The position numbers and the translations under genes were made by a program. Below the pieces are notes generated by a model. The model had not been told where the DNA came from and did not search any database. It worked only from the letters and a program-made list of their open reading frames with translations. Of a stretch of DNA of 64,000 bases, positions 10,544 through 43,100 are shown in pieces. Positions within the stretch are counted from its first letter, which is position 1. Each line of letters starts with the position of its first letter. Source of the stretch: an uncultured Planctomycetales bacterium (lineage in GTDB: Bacteria > Omnitrophota > Gorgyraeia > Zapsychrales > Fredricksoniimonadaceae); the NCBI GenBank assembly GCA_964572155.1, contig CAZNDZ010000001.1, forward strand, positions 718,290 to 782,289, in the 5' to 3' direction.

Positions 10544-11607
10544 AGGTGTTAATTTCAACTGGGGGCAGCGGAGGGCATATCTTTCCCGCGTTGCAAACAG
10601 GGCTGGAATTAAAACGCCGTGGGCATGATGTTGTTTTTGCGGGTGCATTGGCCATGAGTTTAGATAAGATCCGTTCTCTTGGTTTTGAAGCCAATGTTAT
10701 TGATACACAAGGTTTAACCGATAAATCCCCCATGGGCCTCATGCGTTTTACATCAAAGACATTGTCTGCTTTAGTTCAAGCATCTAAAGGCATTGATCAA
10801 ATTAAACCCGATAAAGTCATTGGCTTTGGTGGTTATGGGTCATTTCCCATCATCATGGCTGCGTGCCTTAAGCGGTATCCGACGATGATACACGAACAAA
10901 ATGTTATCCCTGGAAAAGCCAATAAGATTTTAGCTAAATGCGTGAAGCGTGTTGCTGTTGCGTTTAAACAATCCATGCCTGTGTTTGGAGCGAAGTCCAT
11001 TTGGACAGGTTGTCCTTGCAATAACCAAGCGTTGACGACGTCGACGAAAGATATCAGATCGCGCTTAGGACTAAAGCCAGATTCAAAAGTTGTGGTGCTT
11101 TTAGGTGGGAGTCAGGGCAGTAAGTTTTTAAATGAGGCATTCTTTGAGGCTATGAAGACCTTGCTCAAAGAAGGAAATATAGAAGCTGTCCATGTGACGG
11201 GTAAAAATGAATGCGCTGTGTATCAAGAAAAATACAAGGCAGAACATTTGCCCGCGGTAGTATCAAGTTTTATTAGCCCCATCGAAGACATTTATGCAAT
11301 AGCCGATGTGATTGTCAGTCGATCTGGCGCCGCAACCGTGAGTGAATTGGGTTTCTATGGCGCGCCAAGTATTTTGGTGCCGTATCCTTTTGCACATGGT
11401 CATCAAGAACACAATGCACATGTTTTAGTGCAGGCGGGTAGCGCTGTTTTAATTAAACAAAAAGATTTAACCCATGAAGCTTTGCTTGATGCTATGCGTG
11501 CATATCTCAATGTCCCTGTATCCAAAGAAAACTTTCGTCGACAAAATGCGCCATTTTTTGTGAGTGATTCTGTTGTAAAGCTTGCAGATGCATTGGAGGC
11601 ATTATGA
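10540..11607 (+). CDS. murG: UDP-GlcNAc:lipid I GlcNAc transferase MurG.
   Basis: The N-terminal motif GGSGGHIFPAL and the C-terminal GT28 domain are present. Confidence 0.88.
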   Translation: MKVLISTGGSGGHIFPALQTGLELKRRGHDVVFAGALAMSLDKIRSLGFEANVIDTQGLTDKSPMGLMRFTSKTLSALVQASKGIDQIKPDKVIGFGGYGSFPIIMAACLKRYPTMIHEQNVIPGKANKILAKCVKRVAVAFKQSMPVFGAKSIWTGCPCNNQALTTSTKDIRSRLGLKPDSKVVVLLGGSQGSKFLNEAFFEAMKTLLKEGNIEAVHVTGKNECAVYQEKYKAEHLPAVVSSFISPIEDIYAIADVIVSRSGAATVSELGFYGAPSILVPYPFAHGHQEHNAHVLVQAGSAVLIKQKDLTHEALLDAMRAYLNVPVSKENFRRQNAPFFVSDSVVKLADALEAL

Positions 11608-12383
11608 AATATTTAATCTGTATTCTCTTTTTTTTGATGCTGTGGGTCAGTCCATGTTTTGCTGATAAAGAATGGAAGGAATACAAGACAGATAATTTTA
11701 AGATTTATGCGCGTCATGTGAACGAAGATTTTACAAATACTGTCATGATGGAGGCGCAAGAGACTCTAGAAACTGTTTTAGAGAATTTTGGTATTCGAAA
11801 GTCCCAAGTCTGGTCAAAAAAGAATCCAGTGTCGATTTATATTTATGAAAATGAGGAAGATTATGTGAAGAATGGTCAGCAGGCAGGCTGGTCACATGGC
11901 GCCGCGTTAATACAGTCTCGTTCTATTCGTACTTATCCTTCTGCTAGTGGTTTTTTTGACAGCATTTTGCCTCATGAATTGGGACATATTGTTTTACATG
12001 AGTATCTTGGGATACATGTCCCAGTGCCTTTGTGGTTTGATGAAGGGGTAGCCATGTATCAAGAAAAAGCCCGTCAATTAGGTGGGCATAAGGCGGCCGC
12101 CGAGGCTATTAAAAATGGCAAATTTATTCCTTTAACTGAATTGACGAATATGAGATTATATTCCGACACAGATCAGGAGACAGTTCGTTTGTTTTATGTC
12201 GAGTCTGCCAGTGTTGTAAATTTCATGATCACACAGTTGGGTGATTTTCACTTTCGAAAATTATGCCGTTTATTAAAAGAACATCGTAGTTTTCATAATG
12301 CCTTAACAGAGGCATATCCACGTATAAAGAATTTAGAAGACCTAAACAAACAATGGGTAAGGTATTTAACGGAAAATGACTAA
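11604..12383 (+). CDS. Secreted putative zinc metallopeptidase (HExxH, MA-clan-like) inserted between murG and murC.
   Basis: It has a signal peptide, MKYLICILFFLMLWVSPCFA. The motif HELGHIVLHE is an HExxH, and a candidate third ligand sits in FDEGVAMYQE. No match to any core dcw protein. Confidence 0.5.
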   Translation: MKYLICILFFLMLWVSPCFADKEWKEYKTDNFKIYARHVNEDFTNTVMMEAQETLETVLENFGIRKSQVWSKKNPVSIYIYENEEDYVKNGQQAGWSHGAALIQSRSIRTYPSASGFFDSILPHELGHIVLHEYLGIHVPVPLWFDEGVAMYQEKARQLGGHKAAAEAIKNGKFIPLTELTNMRLYSDTDQETVRLFYVESASVVNFMITQLGDFHFRKLCRLLKEHRSFHNALTEAYPRIKNLEDLNKQWVRYLTEND

Positions 12384-17672: not shown

Positions 17673-19676
17673 ATGCTTCTTACTTTCCTTAAAGAAAAAA
17701 CCTTTCTAGTCATATTTATAATATCATTGGCGATCGCAGCAGCGCTCACCGCAGCATGTTGGCACATGAATTTCTGGCCGTCGGATGCGGAAGTATATTA
17801 CATGCCTGCGGCCAAAGATTTATTCCATCATCCTTATCTGTCGTCCATGCATCAAGCCTTGGATGAAGAGCGCATCAAATGGCTGCATGGCAAAGAAATG
17901 CATGTGTTGGCGATCGCTGTCTTGCAACGCCTCATGCAGGATACCGAAACACTTCGTCCTTTACTTTTGCTTGGCGTTTTATCCATTTTCTTTTCCACCA
18001 TTTTTATTTTCTTAATAGCACGAAAACTTTGGGGCAAAACATCTGCGGTTGTGGTGTGGTTTTTATTTGCCTCATCTTTTTGGCCATACCTTTACGTATT
18101 ATTTACCAAGCATCAAACTCAAGGGTTAATGTTTTTCTTACTTAGTGCCTTGATCCTTGTTTTTGCTAACCGTGCGTGGGTTTATCTGATCGCAGGCATG
18201 GCCATGGCCACATCGATTTTCTCGTCGACGGTATCCATGCTGTATGTGCCGCTCGTTATCGCCATCTTTTGTTTGTATCAAAAGCAGGCTTTGCGTAACG
18301 TCATTATATTCGGCGTTGGTTTTATTGGCATAGTGGTCTTTGTTAATTGGCCGGATGTGATGGGGAATCTGAAAAGTTATGCGGCCTATGTGAAGATCAG
18401 CGGGGCCATGAATCATTTCTTCTATAATCAACGTGTTCTGGTGCAATGGCTGCCTACCTATGATTTAAAAGACACGCGCGCAGGATTTCAATGGGTGATC
18501 AAATATTTAATTCTAGTCATTCCCTTTATCCTCGCCATTTTTGCCTGGTGTTTAAATCAAAGTTTTAAACGTTATAAGCAAACGACGTTTTTGATGCTCG
18601 TCTTAAGCGTTTCTGGCATTGTCATGGCAGAGCTCAAAGGCGTTGCGCAATACGGGGCTAATTATTTTCCAGTCTTAATCGGCATGCTCATGTTCATTGG
18701 CTGGTCGCTAAAGCGCGTTACGATGAAGCGCTGGTGGGTTTATATCGCCGCTGTTATCTTTGTATGGAATGCGTATATCTTTGCCAATGAAATCTACCCA
18801 AGCCGCATGGTCACCACACAAATTTCTGATTATTTAAGTAAAAATAGTATCAAAACGATTTATACCTTCCGCCAACATGTCTTGAGGCCAAACATCTTAG
18901 ATCATTTAAATCCATCGACATTAAGTCAATTGAGCATTGTACCCATCGAAAGTGTTGTGCAAGTCAGCGATGGTTACATTTTATTGCCACCCATTAGTTC
19001 AGATTCCATTTATCGGGCATCGAATGGCGACTACAATGATTTTGATAGTGATTTAATGCTTAACAACATCGTGCGTCAAGGCAAGCTCAAAGATTATGCC
19101 GTCAAAGGGTTTAAAACGTTAGGTTCCAGTTTGATTTGGAGTCAAGAGGAAGAGATTTTTGCGTATCGCAACTTGGTGCGTCAGCAATTCAAAGACAGTG
19201 ATTTAAATAAAGCATGGATTTTGGATGCTGCGAAGATTGCAAAAGATAAAATGAAATTTATTCCATCTCAAGACGATTTGATGATGCAGCAACATAATAT
19301 CCGTAATATTGGATCGCTTACACGGCAAAATATGTTTACTAGCTACCAAGGGGGAGTGGCCAAAGATACTGCTCTTAAAGGACTAGCCGCCCGTATATAT
19401 AAGGTAGGCAACCCTACAGATAATTTAAGGGCCTTTGTCTTTAAGGTGGATGACAAGCAGCCCATGTGGATACCCTATGCACCAGCATTTATCTCTAAAC
19501 CATTACCAGCTAATAGGATAGGTTCTGATCTTCAAAGCGAACCTGCTGTTTTTACGTTTGACCCGCCCTTAAACCTTCAAGCAGGCGCATTTTCTGTGGT
19601 TATTTACCGCGATGGCAAGCCCTCTGACCAAGACTTTTACCGCATTTACGCCGATGTTTTAGGCCGCATCGAATAG
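17673..19676 (+). CDS. Polytopic membrane protein, probably a GT-C fold glycosyltransferase (ArnT/PMT-like).
   Basis: The N-terminal ~430 aa contain about 11 TM helices. An acidic motif, SDAE, sits in the first extracytoplasmic loop after TM1. A C-terminal ~230-aa soluble domain follows. This architecture is typical of GT-C (GT39/GT83) enzymes. Confidence 0.4.
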   Translation: MLLTFLKEKTFLVIFIISLAIAAALTAACWHMNFWPSDAEVYYMPAAKDLFHHPYLSSMHQALDEERIKWLHGKEMHVLAIAVLQRLMQDTETLRPLLLLGVLSIFFSTIFIFLIARKLWGKTSAVVVWFLFASSFWPYLYVLFTKHQTQGLMFFLLSALILVFANRAWVYLIAGMAMATSIFSSTVSMLYVPLVIAIFCLYQKQALRNVIIFGVGFIGIVVFVNWPDVMGNLKSYAAYVKISGAMNHFFYNQRVLVQWLPTYDLKDTRAGFQWVIKYLILVIPFILAIFAWCLNQSFKRYKQTTFLMLVLSVSGIVMAELKGVAQYGANYFPVLIGMLMFIGWSLKRVTMKRWWVYIAAVIFVWNAYIFANEIYPSRMVTTQISDYLSKNSIKTIYTFRQHVLRPNILDHLNPSTLSQLSIVPIESVVQVSDGYILLPPISSDSIYRASNGDYNDFDSDLMLNNIVRQGKLKDYAVKGFKTLGSSLIWSQEEEIFAYRNLVRQQFKDSDLNKAWILDAAKIAKDKMKFIPSQDDLMMQQHNIRNIGSLTRQNMFTSYQGGVAKDTALKGLAARIYKVGNPTDNLRAFVFKVDDKQPMWIPYAPAFISKPLPANRIGSDLQSEPAVFTFDPPLNLQAGAFSVVIYRDGKPSDQDFYRIYADVLGRIE

Positions 19677-19712: not shown

Positions 19713-19763
19713 TTCCATAATTTCGTTAGCGCCAAAATACCCTAAATATAAAGAGGTTACGTG

Positions 19764-22700
19764 ATGTTCAAGAAATCCCTTTGTTCTATCATTTCGATTA
19801 TATTTCTCTTCACAACCCTAACCCCAGTCCATAAAGCTCAAGCACAATCCTTACTTGGTCTTCCAGAACCAGGGACAATGGTCAGTTTAAGTGCCGCATA
19901 TCAGCCTGCCATCCTTAAAGGTATAACCGTTCATAAAGACAATCCGTTCATGTTTGATTTCTTAGTTGATGTTGGCCAAGACAATCTCACAGGCGATTCT
20001 TTAAAAAATGAAGGTGACAAGCTTATCAAGTATTTCATGGCAACCTTAGCTGTTCCTGAGAAAGATTTATGGGTTAACTTAAGTCCTTATGAAAAAGATC
20101 GCACCGTCCCTGAAGCCTTAGGTCAGACGGACATGGGCCGTGATCTTTTAGCTCAAGACTATATCTTAAAGCAATTAACCGCGAGTTTGATCTATCCTGA
20201 GAAAGAATTAGGCAAAAAGTTTTGGGACAATGTCTATCAAAAGACACAAGCCAAATACGGCAACGTCAATATTCCTGTAAATACATTCAATAAAGTCTGG
20301 ATCATGGCCGACCGAGCCGAAGTGTTCGAACGCAATCAAACCGCGTTTGTAACAGCGAGCCATTTGAAAGTGCTTTTAGAAACCGATTATTTGGCTTTAC
20401 AAAAGTCTGAGGATTCTAAAAGCATCCTGCGAAGCCCAACGCAAAAGCAATTGGGCGAAGCAGGATCATCACAAAATGAAATAGCAAAAAAAGTCATTCG
20501 TGAAATCATCCTTCCTGAACTTGAGCATGAAATCAACACCGGCAAAAACTTTGCAAATCTCCGTCAGATATTTAACTCCATCATCCTAGCCTCATGGTAC
20601 AAGAATAATTTAAAGCAATCCCTGCTTAACGAAACCTACTCAAATAAGAGCACTGTCAAAGGCATCGACATTGACGATAAAACGATTAAACAGCAAATTT
20701 ACGAACGTTACTTGCAAGCCTATAAGAAGGGCGTCTTTAACTATATTAAAGAAACCCCAGAAGGTGCGCCTAAGAAATATTTTTCGGGTGGGGTGTTGGG
20801 AAGTTTGAAAATTACTAAAGCAAATGAAGCCATGGCGGCGGCTGCATTTAATGAAAATAACAAGCTAGCAAATTTTCATGTAAAATTCGATGCTGCCATG
20901 TTGAATGTAGCAGAAATTAAAGCATTAACAAATGAGCTCCTCAGAGTAACAGTAAACAATAAGAATATAACTCTGTTAAATGGATTCAATTCTTTGGGTG
21001 GGAATGTGATGGTTTCTCCCGACAATGAAGGCGGTTTTTATATCATTTTAAGTGTTGATTGGGAGAAGAATGTTGTCAATCATGACGGCGCTGCAGCAAC
21101 AACGCCAAATCCTGCGTTTCATCCAGTCAACAGAGAAAAAATCGAGGCTGCAATTAATGTGTTCATAAAAAATTTTCTCAAGGATCATCGTGATACATAC
21201 TCTATTGAATCATTACGATTCATAAGTCCAGAGGTAAAACCAGGTCAACTAAGAATGGATATTCATCGCATCCACATCACATCACCTTTTGTGGAACCAT
21301 CGGATGCAGCCATGCAAGCAGATCACATAAAGAATGTTGTTGAGAAGCTTGGGGATCTTGTAGCAGAGCCTGGTGTTAATATTTTTGTGCGTCAAACATC
21401 AGAGGGTATAGAAGTGCATTTTCCAGCAGGTTCATTCGACGCCGCTCAAGTTTCCGAATTACAAGATTTAATAGCTAAAATGCAATCTATAAAGTTTAAG
21501 GTTAGCGAAGAAGGATATCATTTTATCGCGCCCGCCGCAAAATCGTTAGCGTTTATTGCTGTGATTACCGTATTAGTTTATAACATGTATCAGCAAACTA
21601 AAGCAGAAAATAAACGTGCACGTGAAGCATATGCTGCCAAATTAGCGGATCAAAAAAGAATTGCCGCAGAGCGAGAGGCGACTTTAAGAAAATCTGCTCA
21701 TGAGGCATTGATGATGTTAGCTTTGATCATCGAGGGTGCAGATTTTGATCAAGTAATGTTGCATGTTAAAGCGATCGCTAATTCATTTAAATCTAATCCC
21801 TATATTATTGAAGAGTTAGAGCGTCTCGATAAGGAAGTATTCTTAAATGATGGTGCGCATAGAGAGAAATGGAATCTGTTATATCATGCAATGATGGAGA
21901 TAATTTCACCATTGAGTGTAGGCGAAGTGCCATCTGAAGATTTTGTTGGGCTTAGAAATGAAATTGCTGCTTTCTTAAGAACTAGTGGGCACTCCAGTGA
22001 TGTGACAGTACAAAGAGTTCAAAGGCAATATAAGGCGCTCACTTCTTTGATGAAATTTGATGTAGGACCTTTCTGGAATCCTGGAGCGCCGGTGTTTTAT
22101 CGTTATGCTATTTCAATGAGTGAGATGGAGAATAATGGATTGTCTGACAAGAATAAGCCATACTTTTTAGAACTATTCAAAAAATTTGATCTAAAGGTGG
22201 TGACTTTGGGCGGGAAGGAATATTTAGTGCCACAACAATGGTATCGTTCCTTTGGATCTGAAACGCAAAGAATGATTTATTTGGACAAAAAGTTATTATT
22301 AGTTAGATTGTATCTTCGGAAGGTATTTAATAAGTTAAATGATTCTATTGAGAGTGGATCTAACAAAAGAATAAATTTAAAGAATATAGAACTCGACGCA
22401 GCCATGCAAGCATTGGATACCAATGTTTTATCAGGATCATCGGTGTTTAAGCGTTTTGATATCCTTGTTCAAATAAAGACTGCGGTAAACGCGGTGTTAA
22501 AAGGACAAAGGTATTTTTTAGATACGCAATATTCGAAAGATGATGTTGAGCAATTAATCAATGCATATAACGGACAAGCTTTAGATGTGAATAAGGTTGC
22601 GTTGTTATCGGAAGCAAGTGATTCACATAAGACAAATGTGTTGTATTTATCGTCCAGTAATGACGCATTAAGAAAATGGGTTGATCAAGAACTTAAAGAA

Positions 22701-24302
22701 ATCAGGATCAAATACATCGCCAACCGATTGAAGTCAAGAGATTTGCAGAATGTTGAAGATGCGCTGTTTGGTGTTGATGGGGTTGAGCAAGTTACAGAAC
22801 AAGCGGGATCGATTGTCGAAGATGCTAAGGAAAGATTCCTAAATATTGAAACTGGTGAGTTTCTAACAGCAGATCAAGTCTTAACACAATTGAAGAATTA
22901 TCGTTGGTTTGTTGTAGGTCTAGAAGGTGGTGAGATCTTAAATATTGTTGAGCCAAGGTTAGCGGCAATGAAGCCAGGCATTCAATCAATTCAAGATGCG
23001 TTGGGTGTTCAATTAAAAGTGCGCATGGGTGAAGGTTTTGTAAAGCTTACGGATGGATTGAAATCATTGGGAAAGGTTGATGTTATAAGTAAGCCAGAAG
23101 GGGGATTTTTAGTGACAATTGTTATGGATCATCGACCGTATGAAGATCCTTTGAAGTTCTATGCGGAAGCTGTTGCAGCTTTTATTGCACAATTTACATA
23201 TAATTTCAGGCAATATTACACGGCGGAAGTTAAATCATATGAAAGACGGGTATTGGCAAGAGATGGTTCGAAAAGAATGTATCAAATCGTTATCGATCCT
23301 GTAACAAGTAACGCTGATGCGGCGATGAAGAGTGTGATGGTTTCCAAAAGAGATTTTCAATCATTTCATGAATATTTGGACAAACTATTAAAGAAGGAAT
23401 TACAAGTTGAGAGTTATAAAATCGCTGGAGAAACCGTGGTAGTTATTCCTGTTAGTTTTATGCCTGATAATGTTCTTGAATATATGGAAGCTATTGCAGA
23501 TAAATTTAATGTTAGATTGCAGCGGCTTAATAATGCTTCCTATTATTTTGTTCCTAATAGATTGCGATATTTTCTTGGGACAACCAATGGCAATGCAGAA
23601 TACATGGGAAGAAAAATAGCTCCCCTGACAAAATATTTAAACGCATTAAACGCAGAGTTAACTGCAAATATCAACCATAAATTTAACCCTCCAATTGATT
23701 TAAACGGTATACACATTGATGCCGCGATGTCTCATTATGTTGATAGTCGTCAAGAATTATTGTTAAGAGGCGGGATTGCGAAAATTAGTAAAGCAGTTGG
23801 TTATGAAGTGCAGAGTACAACGCTCTCAGATGTAAAAAATGGCTATGTTTTATCAATAGCAACGCCGACCAGAGAAGAAAGCAAGGCGGTGTTAGATAAA
23901 CTTTTGGCTTACGCAACAAATGAAGATGTGAAGAATAATTATGTCATAGAACTTTTAAGAGTGCCTCAAGAGGTGGAGTTCATGGGTTCTAAATATTTTA
24001 ACGTGATGTTTAAGTTAACGTTAAAAACATCAGGCCCTGAGGCTGATAAAGATGACTCCAACGTCATAAGTTTTAATGCTAATAAGACGAAGGCTGACGC
24101 TGCCATGAACGGTGGTATTGATCTTAAGGATGCTGCGGCTAATACGAATGTTCGCAAAGAGGGGCAAGGGGTTGAGTTTGTTGTGGATCAGGCCTTGATT
24201 GAGCGGGTGCGTCGGGAGGGGATTAATAGTTTGACGCCGGTGATCTTGCGCATTGATTCATCCGTCAATATCTGGCCTTTGTTGGGATTGAAAAATCCTT
24301 GA
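19764..24302 (+). CDS. Large secreted protein of unknown family (~1,512 aa) with a recurrent (I/V/F)xDAAM motif.
   Basis: The signal peptide is MFKKSLCSIISIIFLFTTLTPVHKAQA. AAGAGG lies 8 nt upstream. DAAM occurs six times, at about aa 377, 513, 873, 1107, 1235 and 1440. One DAAQ variant occurs at about aa 563. A hydrophobic segment, SLAFIAVITVLVYNMY, sits near aa 595 and is followed by a charged coiled coil. Confidence 0.6.
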   Translation: MFKKSLCSIISIIFLFTTLTPVHKAQAQSLLGLPEPGTMVSLSAAYQPAILKGITVHKDNPFMFDFLVDVGQDNLTGDSLKNEGDKLIKYFMATLAVPEKDLWVNLSPYEKDRTVPEALGQTDMGRDLLAQDYILKQLTASLIYPEKELGKKFWDNVYQKTQAKYGNVNIPVNTFNKVWIMADRAEVFERNQTAFVTASHLKVLLETDYLALQKSEDSKSILRSPTQKQLGEAGSSQNEIAKKVIREIILPELEHEINTGKNFANLRQIFNSIILASWYKNNLKQSLLNETYSNKSTVKGIDIDDKTIKQQIYERYLQAYKKGVFNYIKETPEGAPKKYFSGGVLGSLKITKANEAMAAAAFNENNKLANFHVKFDAAMLNVAEIKALTNELLRVTVNNKNITLLNGFNSLGGNVMVSPDNEGGFYIILSVDWEKNVVNHDGAAATTPNPAFHPVNREKIEAAINVFIKNFLKDHRDTYSIESLRFISPEVKPGQLRMDIHRIHITSPFVEPSDAAMQADHIKNVVEKLGDLVAEPGVNIFVRQTSEGIEVHFPAGSFDAAQVSELQDLIAKMQSIKFKVSEEGYHFIAPAAKSLAFIAVITVLVYNMYQQTKAENKRAREAYAAKLADQKRIAAEREATLRKSAHEALMMLALIIEGADFDQVMLHVKAIANSFKSNPYIIEELERLDKEVFLNDGAHREKWNLLYHAMMEIISPLSVGEVPSEDFVGLRNEIAAFLRTSGHSSDVTVQRVQRQYKALTSLMKFDVGPFWNPGAPVFYRYAISMSEMENNGLSDKNKPYFLELFKKFDLKVVTLGGKEYLVPQQWYRSFGSETQRMIYLDKKLLLVRLYLRKVFNKLNDSIESGSNKRINLKNIELDAAMQALDTNVLSGSSVFKRFDILVQIKTAVNAVLKGQRYFLDTQYSKDDVEQLINAYNGQALDVNKVALLSEASDSHKTNVLYLSSSNDALRKWVDQELKEIRIKYIANRLKSRDLQNVEDALFGVDGVEQVTEQAGSIVEDAKERFLNIETGEFLTADQVLTQLKNYRWFVVGLEGGEILNIVEPRLAAMKPGIQSIQDALGVQLKVRMGEGFVKLTDGLKSLGKVDVISKPEGGFLVTIVMDHRPYEDPLKFYAEAVAAFIAQFTYNFRQYYTAEVKSYERRVLARDGSKRMYQIVIDPVTSNADAAMKSVMVSKRDFQSFHEYLDKLLKKELQVESYKIAGETVVVIPVSFMPDNVLEYMEAIADKFNVRLQRLNNASYYFVPNRLRYFLGTTNGNAEYMGRKIAPLTKYLNALNAELTANINHKFNPPIDLNGIHIDAAMSHYVDSRQELLLRGGIAKISKAVGYEVQSTTLSDVKNGYVLSIATPTREESKAVLDKLLAYATNEDVKNNYVIELLRVPQEVEFMGSKYFNVMFKLTLKTSGPEADKDDSNVISFNANKTKADAAMNGGIDLKDAAANTNVRKEGQGVEFVVDQALIERVRREGINSLTPVILRIDSSVNIWPLLGLKNP

Positions 24303-31331: not shown

Positions 31332-31673
31332 ATGGGATTTGTCATCATCTTCATTGTGGTGCAGGTCATTGTTGCGGGCATCGTTGTTGTAGTTTTAAAC
31401 AATAAGCTTAAGAAAGAATTAATCGAAGCTGCATTAGAAAATCTGCATAGCAATATCACGTCGCAAACACAGGGAGAAATTCGGATCATCAGCGCGCATG
31501 AACTTGATCCACAATTGCAAGCACGCATTATTGGTATTGTAAAACGCAAAACATCTGCAGCGACGGTTGTTTTTTCTTTAGATCAGGGTATCAAAAGTGG
31601 CTTGATCATTCATGCAGATACGTTGGTGTTAGATTTTAGTTTGGCAAATCGTTTGAAAGCGTTAACGACATGA
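31332..31673 (+). CDS. Small membrane-anchored protein of unknown function.
   Basis: It has one N-terminal TM helix (VIIFIVVQVIVAGIVVVVL). It is 113 aa and is translationally coupled to the downstream GT2 gene. Confidence 0.4.
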   Translation: MGFVIIFIVVQVIVAGIVVVVLNNKLKKELIEAALENLHSNITSQTQGEIRIISAHELDPQLQARIIGIVKRKTSAATVVFSLDQGIKSGLIIHADTLVLDFSLANRLKALTT

Positions 31674-33750: not shown

Positions 33751-33802
33751 GAGAATGTTATTTTAATTAAATTGTAACGAATTGTGTTTAATGAGGTTAA
33801 CT

Positions 33803-34399
33803 ATGGCCAAAGAATCCGCAGAAGAAAAGTTGCTAAAGATGATGCAGAAGTCAGGTGCTCCTGTTGCCGCTTCAACTGCGTCACCTGTTGCGGCAGCAAA
33901 AAAATCTGGGCCAAAGTTTGATTTCAATTTTACAATCGGACACTTAAATCAAATTTTATTTATTGGTATTGTTGCATGCATCATTGGTTTAGTTTATGAA
34001 ATGCGTAGTGGCATGCAATTGATTGGTACCAATGTTGATTTAGAGGGTGATGTTAAATTGTCTCGTTCTGTTATGGATATCGCAATGCCCACCAATAACG
34101 ATGTTAAGTTTTATACCGATAAAATTAATACCAGAAATATCTTTCGTCCTTACGAAGCGCCGACGGCTAAAGCGGCGGTTAAGTATAACTTAGCCAAGCG
34201 TTTGTCAAAATTCAAATTGGTTGGTGTAGCATGGCTTGATCTTCCAGAAACAGCGTCGATCATGATCGAAGATACAGCAAATAAAACAACGTTTTTCTTG
34301 AAACAAGGTGAACAATTAGAAGGCGTGACCGTCAAGACCATCTATACGGATAGAGTGGTTTTCGGTGACGAAAATGAGGAGACGACAATTAAGCTATGA
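33803..34399 (+). CDS. Bitopic inner-membrane protein upstream of the secretin, a candidate secretin-interacting component (GspC/PilP-like).
   Basis: The ATG at 33803 has GAGG 6 nt upstream. It has a cytoplasmic N-terminus, one TM helix (ILFIGIVACIIGLVY) and a ~130-aa periplasmic beta-rich domain. The functional call is positional only. Confidence 0.35.
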   Translation: MAKESAEEKLLKMMQKSGAPVAASTASPVAAAKKSGPKFDFNFTIGHLNQILFIGIVACIIGLVYEMRSGMQLIGTNVDLEGDVKLSRSVMDIAMPTNNDVKFYTDKINTRNIFRPYEAPTAKAAVKYNLAKRLSKFKLVGVAWLDLPETASIMIEDTANKTTFFLKQGEQLEGVTVKTIYTDRVVFGDENEETTIKL

Positions 34400-36036
34400 T
34401 TACCCACATCCTAAAACCCAAAGTCTTCTTTTTCATTCTGGCAGGGATGGTTTTGTCCGCGGTTGCCTTGGGCACCGTACGCGCTCAGAATGAACAAGAA
34501 TCAGTCGCCATCGCTGCCGATGATAATGCCGGCGCCGAGCTTCCAAAGCCAATCATTTTAACGGAACCCAAAGAACCGTTAGCCGAGCGTTTATTGCGCA
34601 AAATCACGCTTGATGTGCGCGACATGAATGTCGTCGATGTTATCAAGTTCTTGGCGCAAAAAGGGGAATTCAATGTGATTGTTTCCCCAACCGTTGATGG
34701 CCGCACCACGGTTTTATTACATGGCGTAGGCATCAAAGATGCGCTTGATATCGTTGTTATTTCCAATCGTTTGGCATATCACATTGAAAATGACATCATC
34801 CAAATTATGTCTGGTGCAGAATATGAAGCGATGTATGGTAAAGGGTTTGGCGATAAAACCGAAGTTGCGATCATTCACTTACAATATTCCAAACCAAGCT
34901 ATGTTTTAGCTGCGTTAGATAACATGAAAAGTAATATCGGTAAAATCATCATTGATGAAGATACCGGTTCTGTTGTTTTAGTAGATACGCCTTCTTCTAT
35001 AGCATTAATGAAGAAAGCTATTAGCCAAATCGAACAACCACTTGATACATTAGTTTACGATTTAAAATATGCTAAGGCAGATGTTGTTGCTGAAAAATTA
35101 CGTTCCCGTATTGATGCTAAAGCAGTTGGTTCAGTTACATCCGACGAGAGAACCAATCAAGTCTTAGTGCGCGTTTTTCCTGGACGTACAGATGAAGTTA
35201 AAAAATTAATCGATCAGCTAGATGAGCCTACCAAGGAAGTCTTGATTGAAGCGCGTGTTTTGCAAGTCATCTTGAAACCAAATTTTGATACTGGGATTGA
35301 TTGGACTGCGATCTTTAGCAAGAATGGAAAAGAAAAATTCAACATCAAGAGTATTTTAGAAAATTCAAATACTGATTCATCATTTGGTCAAATTGGTGTT
35401 GGCACAATTAATGCTGGAGATTTTGCAACTCAAATTAAGGCGTTGCAACAAGTCAGTGATACAAAAATCTTATCAACGCCTCAAATTTTAGTTACTAATA
35501 ATGATGAAGCCAATATCCATATTGGTGATACTGTTCCCTATATAGTATCAACAACCAATGGTACAGGTGACAATGCTATTAAAAGTGAAGACGTTCGTTT
35601 CATTGATGTAGGTTTGAAATTAAAAGTTATTCCTACCATCAATGACGATGGCATGGTGACCATGCGTCTAAAACCAGAAATCTCGTCGGTAGTTGCACGT
35701 GTTAGTTCGCAATCTGGCGGTATCCCACAAGTAAATAAAACAGAAGTTGAAACATCCGTTATGGTGCAAGATGGCATGACCATTGTCATGGCTGGTTTAC
35801 GCAAAGAAGATAAAACCCATACCAAAAAAGGTGTACCAGGCCTCATGAATGTTCCTTATTTAGGGAATTTATTTGGCAGCACGTCAGATTCAATCACCTC
35901 AACTGAAATTGTTATCTTAATTACGCCTCATATTGTCAAGGGAACGGATGATTTCAATAAGGTTAATGGCACTATTAAACCATCAAAGAAATACGATCCA
36001 AGTGTTCAAATGAAAGAACCGGCCGCGAAAAAATAA
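34396..36036 (+). CDS. Secretin (GspD/PilQ/RcpA superfamily outer-membrane channel).
   Basis: It has a signal peptide. An N0-like domain is present (ITLDVRDMNVVDVIKFLAQKGEFNVIV). The C-terminal secretin domain ends with the canonical VPGLMNVPYLGNLFGS...IVILITPHIV. Confidence 0.85.
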   Translation: MITHILKPKVFFFILAGMVLSAVALGTVRAQNEQESVAIAADDNAGAELPKPIILTEPKEPLAERLLRKITLDVRDMNVVDVIKFLAQKGEFNVIVSPTVDGRTTVLLHGVGIKDALDIVVISNRLAYHIENDIIQIMSGAEYEAMYGKGFGDKTEVAIIHLQYSKPSYVLAALDNMKSNIGKIIIDEDTGSVVLVDTPSSIALMKKAISQIEQPLDTLVYDLKYAKADVVAEKLRSRIDAKAVGSVTSDERTNQVLVRVFPGRTDEVKKLIDQLDEPTKEVLIEARVLQVILKPNFDTGIDWTAIFSKNGKEKFNIKSILENSNTDSSFGQIGVGTINAGDFATQIKALQQVSDTKILSTPQILVTNNDEANIHIGDTVPYIVSTTNGTGDNAIKSEDVRFIDVGLKLKVIPTINDDGMVTMRLKPEISSVVARVSSQSGGIPQVNKTEVETSVMVQDGMTIVMAGLRKEDKTHTKKGVPGLMNVPYLGNLFGSTSDSITSTEIVILITPHIVKGTDDFNKVNGTIKPSKKYDPSVQMKEPAAKK

Positions 36037-36048
36037 CGGCCTCAACGT

Positions 36049-36837
36049 ATGGAGAAAAGTATGGGCAAAAAAATAATGATTAATTTAACAAGTATGCTTC
36101 GCATGACCGTGCTCATGTTTGCGGTTTTTGCCTTATCGGCAAACGCTTCCGTGAATGCGGAAGACTTGCCAGATACCATGCCTCCATCGGAAGCGGAAGC
36201 GGCTGATCCTGCGGTTCAAGCAGCTCAAGAACGTGAACAATTTATTAAAGAAATCCGTCGTGTTGAGAATTTAAATCGTAAGTACACCGATCAAATCGAT
36301 GAGATCAAGGGCTTGCTCGCAGAAAAAGATGCAGATTTTCAAAAGCGCATGAAAGAATTGGAAGACAAAATGGCTTCCCAACAAAATGATGAAGGTAAAA
36401 AGAGTGTTGCTAAAGAACAAGAAACACAAATGTCTAAAGAATTAGAAAACAAAACTAATGAAATGTTGTCTAAGGGTGGTGATTTAGATCCAGAAGATCA
36501 ACAATTCAAAGAAGAATTAGCCAAAGCACATTACAACATGGGTAATATTTACTTTGAACGCGGTGAATATCAACGTGCTGTCGTCGAATATTACCAAGCA
36601 GTTGATTTAGTTCCTAATGATGCAGATACACATTACAATTTAGCTTTTATCAGTGGTGAATATTTAGGAGATCAAGAAACAGCGTTGAAGCATTATCAAT
36701 GGTACTTATATCTCAAACCAAACGCTGATGATAAAGATGCTATCAACGAAAAAGTTTTACAAGCAAAGATTCACTTAAGAGCAAAGATTGATTCACCGTT
36801 AGATAAAGATAATGGCAATTATAATTTGACCCGTTAA
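36049..36837 (+). CDS. Secreted TPR / coiled-coil protein, a possible secretin-associated (pilotin/PilF-like) factor.
   Basis: It has a signal peptide and a long charged coiled coil. TPR repeats are present (AHYNMGNIYFERGEYQRAVVEYYQAVDLVPNDADTHYNLAF). Its stop overlaps the next start. Confidence 0.5.
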   Translation: MEKSMGKKIMINLTSMLRMTVLMFAVFALSANASVNAEDLPDTMPPSEAEAADPAVQAAQEREQFIKEIRRVENLNRKYTDQIDEIKGLLAEKDADFQKRMKELEDKMASQQNDEGKKSVAKEQETQMSKELENKTNEMLSKGGDLDPEDQQFKEELAKAHYNMGNIYFERGEYQRAVVEYYQAVDLVPNDADTHYNLAFISGEYLGDQETALKHYQWYLYLKPNADDKDAINEKVLQAKIHLRAKIDSPLDKDNGNYNLTR

Positions 36838-38429
36838 TGAGAATTTTGATGCAAAAAATGTCTTATTCTATGCAAAAATTAATATTAACTGGTTTGTTGG
36901 TTTGCGGATTTATTCCGACGGCAATGGCCAATAATTTGACTGTCTCCAATGTGGCCTTAGGTTCACGTGACCCAGGCACCAAAACATTGGTGATTAATTT
37001 CAATGTGGCATGGGAAAATTCATGGCGCAATAAAATTAACCACGATGCTATTTGGTTGACTCTGCGCCTCAACAGCTCGACAACTTCTCCAGTATATAAG
37101 AAGCTTTGCCAAGTTTCAGCTAGTGGCATCAATCCAGAAGGTTCTTCTATTAGCAATAACAACAGCCTGGAATTATACGTCCCCGAAGATAGAAAAGGTT
37201 TATTCTTACGTCGAAATGCCTATAGCAACATTGGCAATATTGCTACCACCAATGTTTCTGTCACGGTTAAATATGATTCTTGCGGTTTTACTGATAGCGA
37301 TAAAGTTAACGCAAGTGTTTTAGGTTTAGAAATGGTCTTAGTTCCACAAGGATCATTCTTTGCAGGTGATAATGATACAAGCACTGCTTCATTAGATCGT
37401 GGAACTGGTGATGCGCGTCCTTGGTCTATTAATAGTGAAAATCAAATTAGCGTTAGCAATGCAGGTGCCAATGGATACCGTTATGTTTCAAATAATAATG
37501 CTGGTGAATATGCAACGGGAACAACATTCAATGTTCCTGCCACATATCCAAAAGGTTACAAAGCGTTTTACGCGATGAAATATGAAATCACCGAAGGTCA
37601 ATGGGTTGAATTTGTTAATTCGTTAGCGACAGATGCAATGCGCATTAATCATGATATCACTGACAATAATCATAAAAATACAGACAGTGTTGTCAATCGT
37701 AATACGATCGCATGTTCTGGTTCACCGTTAACATGTTCAACAACACGTGCAGAACGTGCTGTAACATTTTTATCTTGGTCAGATGTAGCGGCCTTCTTGG
37801 ATTGGGCTGCGTTGCGTCCAATAACAGAATTAGAATTTGAAAAAGTCGCACGTGGTCCAGTGCTTCCATTAAATGGTGAATATGCATGGGGTTCAGCCAA
37901 TATTAGTGCAGCAACAACAATCAGCGGCAATGAAGATGGTACAGAGACCATCACCAATGGTGGTAATGCCAATGTTGGATTATCAACATTATCAGGCGGC
38001 GATGCCAATGATGGCGTAGATTATCAAACAGGCGCGTTACGCACTGGTATATTTGCGACGGAGAATTCAACACGTGAAAGCTCAGGTGCAAGCTACTACG
38101 GTGCGATGGAAATTTCAGGTAACGTAAAAGAATATGTTGTCACCGTCGGAAATGCTGCGGGTTTAAGTTTCACTGGCGTACATGGCGATGGGTATTTAAC
38201 ATCAACATCAGGTTATGAAGGCAATGCCGATGTAAATGCTTGGCCAGGGTTAGATGCTGTTGCAGCGCGAGGTGTCACAGGTGCAAATGGTTCTGGTTTA
38301 CGTGGTGGATCATGGGCAGATAATGTACAAGCATTGCGTGTTTCAGATCGTTCTCAAGCAGCGTTAACGGTTCATACAGCAAGTAATGATGCCGGTGGCC
38401 GCGGGGCAAGGACATATGATGGTAACTAA
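36837..38429 (+). CDS. Secreted protein with a C-terminal FGE-sulfatase (SUMF1/GldJ/GldK-like) domain, paralog A.
   Basis: It has a signal peptide. The SUMF1-family motifs are WAALRPITELEFEKVARGP and LRGGSWADN. The N-terminal ~250 aa are an unknown beta-rich domain. Confidence 0.6.
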   Translation: MRILMQKMSYSMQKLILTGLLVCGFIPTAMANNLTVSNVALGSRDPGTKTLVINFNVAWENSWRNKINHDAIWLTLRLNSSTTSPVYKKLCQVSASGINPEGSSISNNNSLELYVPEDRKGLFLRRNAYSNIGNIATTNVSVTVKYDSCGFTDSDKVNASVLGLEMVLVPQGSFFAGDNDTSTASLDRGTGDARPWSINSENQISVSNAGANGYRYVSNNNAGEYATGTTFNVPATYPKGYKAFYAMKYEITEGQWVEFVNSLATDAMRINHDITDNNHKNTDSVVNRNTIACSGSPLTCSTTRAERAVTFLSWSDVAAFLDWAALRPITELEFEKVARGPVLPLNGEYAWGSANISAATTISGNEDGTETITNGGNANVGLSTLSGGDANDGVDYQTGALRTGIFATENSTRESSGASYYGAMEISGNVKEYVVTVGNAAGLSFTGVHGDGYLTSTSGYEGNADVNAWPGLDAVAARGVTGANGSGLRGGSWADNVQALRVSDRSQAALTVHTASNDAGGRGARTYDGN

Positions 38430-38430
38430 T

Positions 38431-40050
38431 ATGTTAAAGAAAATTATGATTTTTAGCATCCTCTTATGCGCTGCACCTTTGGTGTATGCAAATAACTTAA
38501 ATATTTCTAATTTAAACGTCTCAACTGTAGATACAGCGTCGGGAACAATTAGCTTTACGTGTGATGTTACCCAAGATAATAGCTGGCGCAATAATAATAA
38601 TTTTGATGCCGTTTGGATGTTTATGAAATATTCAACCGATGCTGGACAAACATGGAGCCATGCCAGTATGTTTGGTTATGGTACGAATCCTGCAGGTTTT
38701 TCTGCCGGCAACAATTTTGCATTAGTTGTACCTAATGATGGCAAAGGATTCTTTTTACAACGTACAGATTTTGGAGCAGGTTCTATTACAGTAAAAAATG
38801 TAAAGTTTGTTTGGAATTATGCTCAAGATGGCGTGCCTGCCAATATCGCAACCGCTGCAAACACCATTCACAAAGCATTTGGTATTGAAATGGTTTATGT
38901 TCCACAAGGTGCATTTTATGCTGGTGATGGCAACAGCTCGTCAGATTTTCGTTTCAAGTCAGGAAGCAGTGACAATAATCCTTGGTACATTCAAGGAGAA
39001 AATGCGATTAGCACAACAAATAGTGCATCTAATGGATATTTCTATCAAAGCACGGGAGCAACAGGTGAAAATAATAGTGGCGATGCATTTTTGGTACCAG
39101 CTTCATATCCAAAAGGCTATGCACCATTTTATTTAATGAAATATGAATTAACTGAAGGACAATGGGTGAGCTTCTTTAATACATTATCAACAGCAGCAAA
39201 ATTAAATCGTGATATTACGTCTGCTAATTTAGGTGGAAAAAATTCTGATGGCGTTGTAAAACGTAATACCATTGCATGGGATTCAACTAATCCAACATTA
39301 CCAGCGACAACATTGCGTCCATCACGTCCAGTAAGTTTTGTATCATGGCCAGATGTTGCAGCCTATGCTGCATGGGCAGGTCTTCGTCCTATCACAGAAT
39401 TAGAATTTGAAAAAGCAGCGCGTGGCAAAGACATTGGTGCTAACGCTGATGAATTTGCTTGGGGTTCATCAAGTTATACAGCGATAGGCACAACAGATAT
39501 CACACCAAATCAAGATGAAGTAGGAACGGAAACATTAAATAGTGCTGCAAATTTAAATCGCAATTCATTGGGATTTAGTACGGGTGATGGGCGTAGTGGT
39601 GGGATTGCATCTACACAAGCAGGTCCAGTGCGTGTCGGCATCTTCGCCGCTGGCGCATCTAATCGTATTAGTTCTGGTGCAGGATTTTATGGCAACATGG
39701 AATTATCGGGCAATTTGGCAGAACCAGTTGTAACCATTGGTCGTACTCAAGGTCGTCAGTTCTTAGCATCACATGGTACGGGTGCATTAACGAGCTTATC
39801 AGGCTATGAAGGAAATGCTGCTAACACGGATTGGCCAGGCTTGGATAATGTGAATGCAAGCCGTGGTATTACAGGTACCGTTGGCATTGGTTACCGTGGG
39901 GGAGATTTTAATTCATCAAATATTCGCACCTATCAATTGTCGTCAAGAACATATGCAGCGAAAGATCCTGATTCTTTAGGATTTTATCAACGTTCCGATG
40001 CAGGGTTTGGTGTTAATCAGGGCGGCCGTTTAGGTCGCAGTGCGCCGTAA
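38431..40050 (+). CDS. Secreted protein with a C-terminal FGE-sulfatase (SUMF1/GldJ/GldK-like) domain, paralog B.
   Basis: It is collinear with paralog A; compare ANNLNISNLNVS with ANNLTVSNVALGS, and ITELEFEKAARGK and YRGGDFN. The ATG at 38431 starts the signal peptide MLKKIMIFSILLCAAPLVYA. The 38386 extension overlaps gene A. Confidence 0.6.
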   Translation: MLKKIMIFSILLCAAPLVYANNLNISNLNVSTVDTASGTISFTCDVTQDNSWRNNNNFDAVWMFMKYSTDAGQTWSHASMFGYGTNPAGFSAGNNFALVVPNDGKGFFLQRTDFGAGSITVKNVKFVWNYAQDGVPANIATAANTIHKAFGIEMVYVPQGAFYAGDGNSSSDFRFKSGSSDNNPWYIQGENAISTTNSASNGYFYQSTGATGENNSGDAFLVPASYPKGYAPFYLMKYELTEGQWVSFFNTLSTAAKLNRDITSANLGGKNSDGVVKRNTIAWDSTNPTLPATTLRPSRPVSFVSWPDVAAYAAWAGLRPITELEFEKAARGKDIGANADEFAWGSSSYTAIGTTDITPNQDEVGTETLNSAANLNRNSLGFSTGDGRSGGIASTQAGPVRVGIFAAGASNRISSGAGFYGNMELSGNLAEPVVTIGRTQGRQFLASHGTGALTSLSGYEGNAANTDWPGLDNVNASRGITGTVGIGYRGGDFNSSNIRTYQLSSRTYAAKDPDSLGFYQRSDAGFGVNQGGRLGRSAP

Positions 40051-40104: not shown

Positions 40105-43100
40105 ATGTTAAAAATTAAATTACAGTTAAAGAAACTGTGCGTCACAACGGTCATATTGATCGTCATGTCGATGGTTTCTTCCTCTGCATTTGCCCAATAC
40201 TCTGGCGGTTCACAAACTGGCAGCGGCGAAGCCACGATCGGTCAAGACATCTTCAAGGGTGGTCGCCAAGGTTCTTCCACCGTCGGAACTTCTAATGGTG
40301 GTTCTGCTTTATCTCATGGCGTAGCAACAAAGCTATATTTCGCTGTACAACCATCAGCGTCAAAACACAGTCACACCTTTGATCGTCAACCTGTAGTTGT
40401 TGTTCAAGATGCGAACGGAAATACAGTAACTGACGATAATACCACCCAAATCAAACTTGAAATCGGCAACAATCCAGGCAATGGGTATATCGAAGGTGTA
40501 ACCACGATTACAGTTGTTAATGGTGTTGCAACATTTTCAAATTTAAACATCAGCAAAGCTGGCCCACTATACACGTTAAAAGCTTCAGCAACAGGTCTTA
40601 CAACAGCATATTCAGAATCATTCGAGATTTATGCAGGTACTGGTCCAAAGGTTGCCGCAGTTTGGGATAATGCTGCAGGAAAATATCGCATTTATACTTG
40701 GGTTGAACAAGATAATCAAAGGCAAGATGTTGATAATACAGGTGATGATACCTGTGATACCCATACTATTTATGCATACGATGGTTCAACAGAAGCAACA
40801 TTAACAATGACAAAAGATGATGCAAATGATTATTGTTACACCGCTTCAGGAGATGCATGGACACCATCTAGTACAGCCAATTCCTATTTTCTTGATTTTC
40901 AGATTACGCTCGATGCTTCTTCTTATAGAACCTATGCTCCATTAGATTTAATTAAACCTGCTTTACAAGGCATTAGAGCGAAGACTGATTTAATTAATTG
41001 GACAAACGTTACAGATATTAAATCTAAAACAGACACGATTAACTGGACAGATGTCACGACCATTAATGCTCATACCAATAGCATCAATTGGCAAGATATT
41101 GGGGTCTTAAAATCAAACGTCAGCAGCATCAAATCAATAACAGACACCATTGATACATCAGTTAATTGGCAAGACATTGTTGTTCAAACGAAATCAGGTG
41201 TAAATTGGAAAGACATAGCTAGCACAACATTAAAGGGTATCAACTGGGATGATTTAAGCGTCTTAACAAATGTTGCGGTGAACTGGCGCGAACTTAATGT
41301 ATTAGGTAGAGCCGGTGTCAACTGGAACGACTTAAATACATTAACGCGCATTGGCGTCAATTGGCGTGATTTTGAAGTATTAGGTCGTGCACGTGTTAAT
41401 TGGTCTTCGATGGCTGAAATGGGTAAGGTTGGTATCAACTGGTATGACATGGCAGTCATGTCTGGTGCCCGTGTTACTTGGTCACAACAAATCAATTGGT
41501 ATAGCTTAGCTGATTTAACCACCGCTGGTGTTAATTGGTCGGATTTAAACGTTATGTCTGCAAAAAATATCAATTGGACCGACATCAATTCATTGAGTCG
41601 TGCAGGCGTTAATTGGAATAATTTCGGTTTATTAACCACAGTAGGTGTTAATTGGAATGATTTAACAGTCTTCTCAAGAACAATTATCAACTGGGATGAT
41701 TACGCCGTTCTTAGTCGTTCTGGAATCAATTGGGCGAACTTTGGTAATTTAACAACATCCAGCATTAACTGGAATGACATCAATGTTTTGTCGAGAAATG
41801 GCGTCAATTGGAACGACTTTGGTGTTCTCTCAAAAGCTGGCGTTAATTGGAACGATCTGCGTATCTTCACCAGAGCTGGTGTTAACTGGCAAGGCTTAAA
41901 TGTTTTTAGCAACACTTACGTTAATTGGGATGGGTTAAACCTTATGTCCACCAACGGCGTCAATTGGACAAATATTGGTTTACTCTCAACTGTAGGAGTT
42001 AATTGGGCAGATCTTAACGTAATGAGCCGCACTGGTGTAAACTGGGGCGATTTAAACCGCATGAGTGGTTTGGGTGTTAATTGGGCGGACTTAAATCGCT
42101 TAAGTGCCGTCGGTGTTAATTGGGCAGATTTAAATGTCTTAACAAAGTCTGGTATTAATTGGTATGACATGAACAGTTTCACAAAGGCGGGAATCAATTG
42201 GACAGACTTTGGTGTATTTAGTAAGACTGGCATCAATTGGAACAATATTAATATTTATGCAAGTGCCAATGTTAACTGGCAAGGGTTATATGTCTTAACA
42301 ACCAGTGGCATCAATTGGTCAAACATTGGAACCATGACAAGTACAGGTATTAATTGGAATGATTTTGCTGTCATGACTGTTAAGAGTTTGAATTGGGAAG
42401 ATTTTGGTATCCTGTCAAAGGTTGGCGTGAATTGGACAGATCTTGGAACATTTAGTAAAGCAGGTGTCAATTGGTATGATATTCAATCCATGGGTACTAA
42501 AGGAATTAACTGGAATGATTTTAATATATTAAGCAAAGCTTCAATTAATTGGACAGATTTTGGTTCTCTTGGCAAAGCAGGTATCAATTGGAACGATATT
42601 GGTGTTCTTTCTAAAAATGGCGTCAATTGGCAAGATTTAAATGTCATGTCTAAAGTAGGTATAAATTGGACTGATTTTAATCGTTTATCTGGTGTAGCGG
42701 TCAATTGGTCTGACATTGGTGTTTTATCAAAGATTGGAGTTAATTGGCAAGATTTCAACGTCATCAGCAAAGTTGGCGTTAATTGGAATGATTTTGGAGT
42801 TTTATCCAAAGCTGGTGTGAATTGGAGAGATTTAAATATCTTAAGCAGCACAGGTGTCAATTGGTATGACATGAATATTTTAAGCAATACTGGAACCAAT
42901 TGGTCTAATTTTGCTGTATTAAGTAAAGTTGGCGTTAATTGGAATGATTTTGGAGTTCTCTCAAAGGCAGGGATCAACTGGAATGATTTGACAGTGATGA
43001 GCCGCACCAATGTCAACTGGGGTGATTTAAATCGCATGAGCAGCCTCGGTGTAAATTGGGCAGATTTAAATCGCATGAGTGGACTTGGTGTCAATTGGCA

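Follow-up and report, generated by a model that had tools for sequence, protein, structure and literature searches.

A 64,000-nucleotide stretch of an uncultured Omnitrophota genome (contig CAZNDZ010000001.1; hereafter the window) carries two adjacent genes, FGE1 and FGE2, for secreted paralogues that share the formylglycine-generating enzyme (FGE) fold. Neither protein, nor any of the relatives aligned with them, has the catalytic cysteines of that enzyme. Directly downstream lies the open frame of a giant repeat protein, which begins with a short sequence tag right behind its signal peptide, and tags of this type recur in the corresponding neighbour of FGE-fold genes across at least two bacterial phyla. 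The element that travels with the FGE-fold family is this tagged neighbour, not the secretin gene found upstream of the pair in the window. We tentatively see in FGE1 and FGE2 heads or adaptors without catalytic function, which would dock on the tag of their downstream partner. The features concerned, all on the plus strand, are the following (a slash marks a cleavage site; aa, amino acids):

36837-38429 (+): FGE1, with signal peptide, beta-sandwich resembling immunoglobulin (Ig) or fibronectin type III (FN3) domains, and FGE/C-type-lectin-like fold
38386-40050 (+): FGE2, paralogue of FGE1 with the same architecture; likely true start at 38431 (MLKKIM...)
40105-64000 (+): giant secreted repeat protein, 7,965 aa or more, cut off by the window end
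40198-40275 (+): N-terminal tag of the giant protein in two copies, YSGGSQTG (40198-40221) and FKGGRQGS (40252-40275), right after the predicted cleavage site AFA/Q
41488-63600 (+): 567 uninterrupted 13-residue repeats, consensus G-[IV]-N-W-x-D-[LF]-[NG]-V-L-S-K-x

FGE-fold paralogues without catalytic cysteines

FGE1 and FGE2 show 45% identity to each other across their whole length (E=2e-127), and both match PF03781 above the gathering score. A preliminary description, made from the letters of the window and its open reading frames (ORFs), had read them as tandem secreted paralogues with an FGE-sulfatase domain; the PF03781 matches, the signal peptides and the mutual identity all agree with this, and the motifs quoted there are present in both proteins. 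The signal peptide of FGE1 is predicted to be cleaved at AMA/NN (residues 29-33). The resulting mature N-terminus, A31-N32-N33, is invariant in the family and fits signal peptidase I, and a canonical lipobox is absent from FGE1 and FGE2. In FGE1, the Ig/FN3-like domain extends over residues ~34-170 and is joined by a linker to the FGE/C-type-lectin-like fold at ~230-526. An AlphaFold2 model based on an alignment of 58 sequences reached a predicted local distance difference test (pLDDT) score of 90.3 and a predicted template modelling (pTM) score of 0.90.

The copper-binding catalytic cysteines of FGE, C336 and C341 in the human enzyme, come after the RGGS motif. When comparing the segment that follows this motif, it becomes clear that neither FGE1 (RGGSWADNVQALRVSDRS) nor FGE2 (RGGDFNSSNIRTYQLSSRT) retains them, and a cysteine at positions 494-502 occurs in none of the 58 aligned members from Omnitrophota and Bacteroidota. 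With the catalytic pair missing in all 58, the earlier suggestion of non-enzymatic FGE-fold proteins is supported. There is no conserved His/Cys cluster common to both paralogues, and Pfam and NCBIfam scans of FGE1 and FGE2 revealed no DinB or other cofactor domain. The best NCBIfam matches of the two proteins, to SenA and EgtB, are weak and partial (26-30 bits, cut-offs 360-420). An identity as sulfoxide synthase of the EgtB/OvoA/SenA type was discarded because these matches are short and partial and a DinB domain is lacking. The PF03781 match, and database entries named, for instance, 'formylglycine-generating enzyme required for sulfatase activity', would agree with the idea that the pair are ordinary formylglycine-generating enzymes activating sulfatases. 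This idea is effectively refuted. Both catalytic cysteines are lost family-wide, the NCBIfam matches are of low quality, and the scanned ORFs of the window include no sulfatase domain.

The preliminary description had also called the pair GldJ/GldK-like, which does not hold beyond the level of the fold. PorK, GldK and GldJ share with FGE1 and FGE2 an FGE-like fold without catalytic cysteines. However, they are outer-membrane lipoproteins, whereas FGE1 and FGE2 carry signals of the signal-peptidase-I type. The order of domains, Ig-like first and FGE fold second, likewise differs from that of GldJ and GldK. At E<=0.01 the window proteins matched neither the NCBIfam model for GldK (TIGR03525) nor that for GldJ (TIGR03524), and the only GldK match among seven relatives scored 15 bits against a cut-off of 350. 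Since no usable match was obtained for the window proteins or these relatives, orthology with GldJ or GldK was rejected. Pfam families for PorN/GldN, PorL and PorM are absent among the scanned window ORFs, and PorK is structurally no closer to the pair than unrelated FGE-fold proteins are. Unlike PorK, GldK and GldJ, the proteins described here are encoded beside a secretin gene in lineages of the Planctomycetota-Verrucomicrobiota-Chlamydiota (PVC) group, or beside a single gene for type IX secretion system (T9SS) cargo in Bacteroidota. GldK is linked to SprF/PorG by a disulfide (PMC12635249); FGE1 and FGE2 would instead be coupled to the N-terminal tag of their neighbour. For PorK, it has been shown structurally that the FGE fold acts as a non-enzymatic docking hub (PMC12421860).

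Other proteins of this fold offer further comparisons. FGE (SUMF1) targets CxPxR, as does its inactive paralogue pFGE (SUMF2), whereas the target here would be [YF]xGGxxDG; moreover, FGE1 and FGE2 possess the additional Ig-like domain and an insertion of ~60 residues, and the gene of their partner, a putative surface fibre instead of a sulfatase, adjoins their own. FGE and pFGE both bind secretory proteins at a short linear motif. PvdO, which functions in periplasmic pyoverdine maturation, CalU17 and ToxD are FGE-fold biosynthetic proteins; in our case, siderophore or natural-product genes are absent, and the putative substrate or ligand is the N-terminus of a ribosomally made protein. The C-type-lectin-like fold is also common to FGE1 and the receptor-binding proteins TvpA and Mtd, which belong to diversity-generating retroelements. 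In contrast to these, the locus has no reverse transcriptase, template repeat or variable region, and the sequence is highly conserved and not hypervariable.

The tagged neighbour and its distribution

The tag has the form [YF]-x-G-G-x-x-[DS]-G and is found in one to six copies right behind the signal peptide of the protein encoded directly downstream of the FGE-fold gene. In the window, the N-terminus of the giant protein reads AFA/QYSGGSQTGSG...IFKGGRQGSS. Partners from Flavobacterium start with FAQYNGGNSSG and similar stretches, in up to six copies with a period of ~24-26 residues, and small partners have tags such as QSAYHGGKGDGYA. No Pfam or NCBIfam model covers the tag. One genome per GTDB species was scanned, giving 77 loci of the family. 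Looked for in the first 120 aa, the strict motif Y.GG..[DSNTG]G is present in 32 of the 65 immediately downstream ORFs and absent from all 699 remaining ORFs at these loci (Fisher p=1e-38, a value that overstates independence because the loci share ancestry). With a relaxed motif the numbers are 41/65 and 1/699, and inspection added further cases (L005, L007, L011, L013-15, L020, L022, L028, L035, L052 and L063). In the six-frame translation of the window, the strict motif occurs once only, at the N-terminus of the giant ORF. A reverse search with the Flavobacterium tag repeats yielded six matches; just one lay on an informative contig, with a PF03781 gene just upstream, which is consistent with the pattern, though the sample is too small to count. 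Tags of this pattern occur in two or more phyla, in combination with two export routes, and on partners that range in length from 122 aa to over 7,965 aa.

FGE1 has more than 1,100 relatives at E<=1e-3. Among the 120 matches listed, all are full-length with 54-73% identity, except for an exact copy (P0001), and those with an organism name are labelled Omnitrophica or Omnitrophota. The N-terminal domain alone is represented by 1,278 clusters at 50% clustering; it is located almost always directly behind the signal peptide, in proteins of ~490-600 aa. The labels that members bear in public databases are unspecific ('SUMF1/EgtB/PvdO family nonheme iron enzyme', 'formylglycine-generating enzyme', 'hypothetical protein'), and neither the family nor the motif turned up in Pfam, in NCBIfam or in the literature that we searched on FGE-sulfatase/PF03781 with secretin or T9SS.

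Every Omnitrophota-type locus that reaches far enough has the same gene set, namely a GspC/GspB-like gene, a secretin gene, a gene for a tetratricopeptide repeat (TPR) protein, one or two FGE-fold genes and a very large ORF, within which the contig usually ends. These loci stem from different species. Because this set is conserved, a dedicated envelope or surface assembly, as envisaged in the preliminary description, is plausible. Tandem FGE1 and FGE2 genes are found in most Omnitrophota loci; more distant secretin-type loci have a single FGE-fold copy (L025, L027-L029). An ExeA-like AAA ATPase is a further addition in more distant loci.

Full-length relatives, with 29-35% identity over residues ~1-526, are unexpectedly common in Bacteroidota, among them three cultured species, Flavobacterium noncentrifugens, Kaistella palustris and Nafulsella turpanensis. 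There is no secretin gene near these Bacteroidota relatives. The secretin, to which the preliminary description had tied the pair, is therefore not the constant partner; the tagged downstream protein, which was overlooked there, takes this place. In every Bacteroidota partner tested, the downstream product ends in a T9SS C-terminal sorting domain (Por_Secre_tail). Minimal partners (122-147 aa) have nothing apart from a signal peptide, the tag, a linker and the sorting domain. Longer members of the FGE-fold family carry additional Laminin_G_3, CBM9-like or beta-propeller modules, of kinds common in proteins that bind targets outside the cell, and have no T9SS sorting domain of their own.

Some observations on individual lineages deserve mention. 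Cys293 of FGE1 (window ~37713-37715) is retained in 57 of the 58 aligned members, both in Omnitrophota FGE1 orthologues and in Bacteroidota relatives, and FGE2 has a serine at the matching position. Many tag repeats of Flavobacteriia contain one conserved cysteine, and the Omnitrophota tags contain none. By analogy with the bond between GldK C343 and SprF/PorG, it is conceivable that a disulfide joins the two partners in some lineages. At eight loci of the Cytophagia/Sphingobacteriia type (L035, L036, L046, L047, L048, L056, L060, L072; ~11.4-15.8 kb), the FGE-fold gene and the gene for a 122-147-aa partner are followed by a 620-658-aa ORF, which is a BtuB-sized TonB-dependent receptor where scanned (L035, L046), and then by lipoproteins with DUF5074 (L035, L060, L072) or DUF4465 (L035, L048). 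DUF4465 is a vitamin B12-binding domain (PMC13398666), which hints at a nutrient-capture setting for the FGE-fold module of these loci. In metagenome-assembled genomes of Odoribacter (L070, L071, L074, L077) we noted tandem arrays of four to six enlarged members of 800-1,280 aa with the same N-terminal domain; at L071 the array precedes a 2,920-aa ORF with a relaxed tag, FIKGGGADGY.

The giant protein of the window consists of a Sec signal peptide, the tag region, an Ig-like domain and the array of 13-residue repeats. Its frame is open from 40066 to 63999, with the start at 40105. Successive NW dipeptides lie exactly 13 residues apart in 573 of the 578 intervals, and 567 repeats follow one another without a break; Asn makes up 15.7% and Trp 7.3% of the protein, and the repeats are devoid of Cys. 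AlphaFold2 predicted an all-beta structure for 260 aa of repeats, with only one of five models reaching a pLDDT of 75.7, too weak a result for us to claim a specific solenoid. The protein fits neither the Archaeovorin nor the Dockerin type of Omnitrophota giant proteins. According to West-Roberts et al. 2023 (bioRxiv 10.1101/2023.11.21.568195), secretin and other genes resembling the type II secretion system (T2SS) precede an Omnitrophota giant gene; the genes listed there are gspD/E/F, rcpC and rotamase, and no FGE-fold proteins. That study does not contain the words 'sulfatase', 'formylglycine' or 'SUMF1', nor are they mentioned in the papers on Omnitrophota giant genes that note nearby T2SS-like genes. 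A further study described giant ORFs and proposed a predatory or epibiotic lifestyle for Omnitrophota (PMC10066038); 'type II secretion', 'secretin', 'sulfatase' and 'formylglycine' do not appear in it. On the minus strand, long ORFs of up to 1,276 aa with repetitive 'KSFQLTP' and no Pfam matches span 41184-63530. These are antisense shadows of the repeat gene on the plus strand and should not be annotated as genes.

The secretin module and the genes upstream

From 33.8 to 64 kb the window is a single run of co-directional genes on the plus strand, in the order GspC/B-like, secretin, TPR, FGE1, FGE2 and giant ORF (>7,965 aa). The three genes upstream of FGE1 encode the following proteins:

33782-34399 (+): GspC/GspB-like bitopic inner-membrane protein with one transmembrane helix and a putative C-terminal HR-type domain
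34396-36036 (+): outer-membrane secretin of the GspD/PilQ class, 546 aa (PF00263, 3.3e-49; Secretin_N, PF03958, 8.6e-22)
36049-36837 (+): secreted TPR protein with a coiled-coil N-terminal half (TPR_11, 1.5e-12; TPR_1, 1.3e-10)

For the first gene, the public gene call equals a start at 33803 (198 aa). Its translation contains the transmembrane segment ILFIGIVACIIGLVY and matches PF11356 (T2SSC) with E=3.3e-4 and 21 bits, below the gathering score of 27, and NCBIfam GspC_delta with 8.4e-5. The orthologue at locus L063 reaches 29.5 bits and thus exceeds the T2SSC gathering score of 27, and the gene is kept upstream of the secretin gene in Omnitrophota-type loci. The secretin scores ~237 bits with both the PilQ and the GspD model of NCBIfam, each time under the respective cut-off. 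The TPR protein is not a lipoprotein; its weak NCBIfam matches to PilW, Tgl and GltE include a similarity to PilW/Tgl that suggests a secretin-associated factor.

At L063, a locus labelled Verrucomicrobiota, a pseudopilin, GspK, PilM/N and PilO/GspM are encoded immediately before the cassette, and the gene of an ExeA-like protein is contiguous with it as well. From this context we conclude that the secretin module is the distal part of a system similar to T2SS or type IV pili. Just upstream of the GspC/B-like gene, five loci (L022, L025, L027, L029 and L063; ~4-6 kb) have an ORF of ~290-311 aa with a conserved MSYY-type N-terminus, which is an ExeA/GspA-like AAA_22 ATPase where scanned (L025, L063). 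Where the distant loci carry this ORF, the window has two glycosyltransferase family 2 (GT2) genes and a gene for a DUF2304 protein.

Upstream of the cassette are housekeeping genes, i.e. a dcw cluster, glycine cleavage genes, a lipoate ligase, an S41 peptidase and the two GT2 glycosyltransferases. A Peptidase_MA_2 gene (11604-12383, +) is located between murG and murC, which is unusual in an otherwise canonical dcw cluster. A 1,513-aa ORF without any Pfam match (19761-24302, +) is preceded by a gene for a 667-aa membrane protein (17673-19676, +) with weak similarity to PMT_2 glycosyltransferases. Between the S41 peptidase and a GT2 gene lies a lone 113-aa ORF (31332-31673, +), whose sole match is to the C-terminal half of ATP synthase delta/OSCP (1.1e-8). 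This ORF is far from any ATP synthase operon of the window and is also found in related loci.

Proposed docking on the tag and its alternatives

In our tentative model, the most economical reading of the data would be that the FGE-fold protein recognises the tag directly. FGE1 and FGE2 would pair with the product of the gene immediately downstream; the tag-bearing protein would serve as stalk, anchor or carrier, and the FGE-fold protein as a head or adaptor on its N-terminal tip. In the Omnitrophota genome described here, the tagged partner would be the giant fibre of 13-residue repeats, for which the GspC/B-like protein, the secretin and the TPR protein may provide the route across the outer membrane. 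With two tags on the giant protein and two paralogues, FGE1 and FGE2 would both be placed at the N-terminal end of the fibre. In Bacteroidota, the tagged partner would be exported by the T9SS. T9SS cargo is attached to the cell via its C-terminus, which would leave the N-terminal tag at the far end and the FGE-fold protein as a head on top of a stalk. Such an arrangement echoes Mtd, a protein of the same fold class at the tips of phage fibres.

Several points favour non-catalytic docking. The catalytic cysteines are lost without a replacement cluster common to both paralogues, PorK and pFGE provide precedents, and the longer members, all without a T9SS signal of their own, are fused to lectin-type modules. 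Above all, the minimal partners look like carriers or anchors for a tag binder.

On the other hand, a number of observations weigh against this model. Roughly one fifth to one third of the Bacteroidota loci are without a clear downstream tag (e.g. L040, L043/L051, L055, L064, L066 and L073); in addition, the shared ancestry of the loci bears on the strength of the tag statistics, as stated above. The number of paralogues does not follow the number of tags, with one gene and five tags at L038 and one gene and two tags at L027. A match of the two counts, seen as 2/2 in most Omnitrophota loci and as 1/1 at L025 and L029, fails at L027, L038 and others and was not used. Genes for a T2SS ATPase, platform or (pseudo)pilins are absent among the scanned ORFs of the window, so that the giant protein is only assumed to use this secretin, and the C-terminus of the giant protein lies beyond the window end. 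Finally, gene adjacency and a shared motif would fit an enzyme-substrate relation equally well.

The main rival builds on this last point. It holds that the FGE-fold proteins are enzymes that modify the tag of their neighbour in the periplasm, for example at the conserved Tyr, the Gly-Gly or the Asp. FGE, which acts on CxPxR of freshly translocated sulfatases, and PvdO, which takes part in the periplasmic maturation of the Tyr-derived pyoverdine chromophore, would be parallels. We regard this as unlikely, because copper-binding cysteines and a DinB or other cofactor domain are missing and the paralogues have no His/Cys cluster in common, FGE2 having a Ser at position 293. Furthermore, most of the invariant residues correspond to fold-defining FGE motifs, and the lectin-like modules on longer members point to binding.

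Docking on the tag could also take a different form. LapA is retained in a TolC-like pore by an N-terminal plug, and by analogy the pair may stay in the periplasm as a stopper that holds the N-terminus of the fibre in the secretin. This variant is less likely; it fits Omnitrophota, but it fits the T9SS partners poorly.

Slightly less probable than the enzymatic rival is a periplasmic ring or track in the manner of PorK, GldJ and GldK, along the lines of the preliminary description, in which the pair would be a structural part of the secretin machine and the tag incidental. The FGE fold without catalytic cysteines, the occurrence as a paralogue pair, as with GldJ/GldK, and the fixed place of the pair in Omnitrophota, always after the secretin/TPR genes and before the cargo gene, would all agree with such a role. 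However, FGE1 and FGE2 are not lipoproteins, and they have neither a GldJ/GldK match in NCBIfam nor PorN/GldN, PorL or PorM nearby; nor is PorK a closer structural relative than other FGE-fold proteins. The more distant secretin-type loci are single-copy, and the Bacteroidota members occur without a secretin, beside single T9SS cargo genes and apart from gldK-N.

A further and rather doubtful alternative is that FGE1 and FGE2 are free secreted lectins or adhesins that bind glycans of prey or host and are co-expressed with the giant protein without contacting it. Their C-type-lectin-like fold, as in the receptor-binding TvpA and Mtd, the lectin-type add-on domains of longer members and the predatory or epibiotic lifestyle proposed for Omnitrophota (PMC10066038) are consistent with this. 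Yet such a function leaves unexplained both the specific N-terminal motif that accompanies the family across phyla and the minimal partners made of tag and sorting domain, and the Bacteroidota members have no T9SS signal to reach the surface alone.

If docking on the tag is correct, it may be part of a wider scheme, a two-part surface display common to several phyla, which we consider possible though on balance improbable. Here, a tag on a stalk, anchor or fibre would recruit a head made of Ig-like domain and FGE/C-type-lectin fold that lacks an export or anchor signal of its own, and each lineage would use its own outer-membrane machine for export, namely a secretin (Omnitrophota and other PVC bacteria) or the T9SS (Bacteroidota). 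In Omnitrophota, FGE1 and FGE2 would then sit as the binding tip on a fibre of thousands of residues that contacts host or prey cells.

Giant proteins are a hallmark of Omnitrophota, and published accounts have noted the T2SS-like genes near giant genes, not the FGE-fold proteins. If the pair docks on the tag of the giant protein, the functional tip of the fibre or a device for its retention would be identified, and a peptide together with its roughly 55-kDa binder would provide an experimental handle. Although Omnitrophota are uncultured, the idea is open to genetic tests because the module occurs in cultured Bacteroidota. FGE1 and FGE2 would be a new instance of a known theme, the repurposing of the FGE fold for docking in the envelope. 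They would extend the case of PorK, GldK and GldJ to a fold repeatedly recruited as a non-catalytic docking module, and thousands of database annotations as 'formylglycine-generating enzyme' or 'nonheme iron enzyme' would be corrected.

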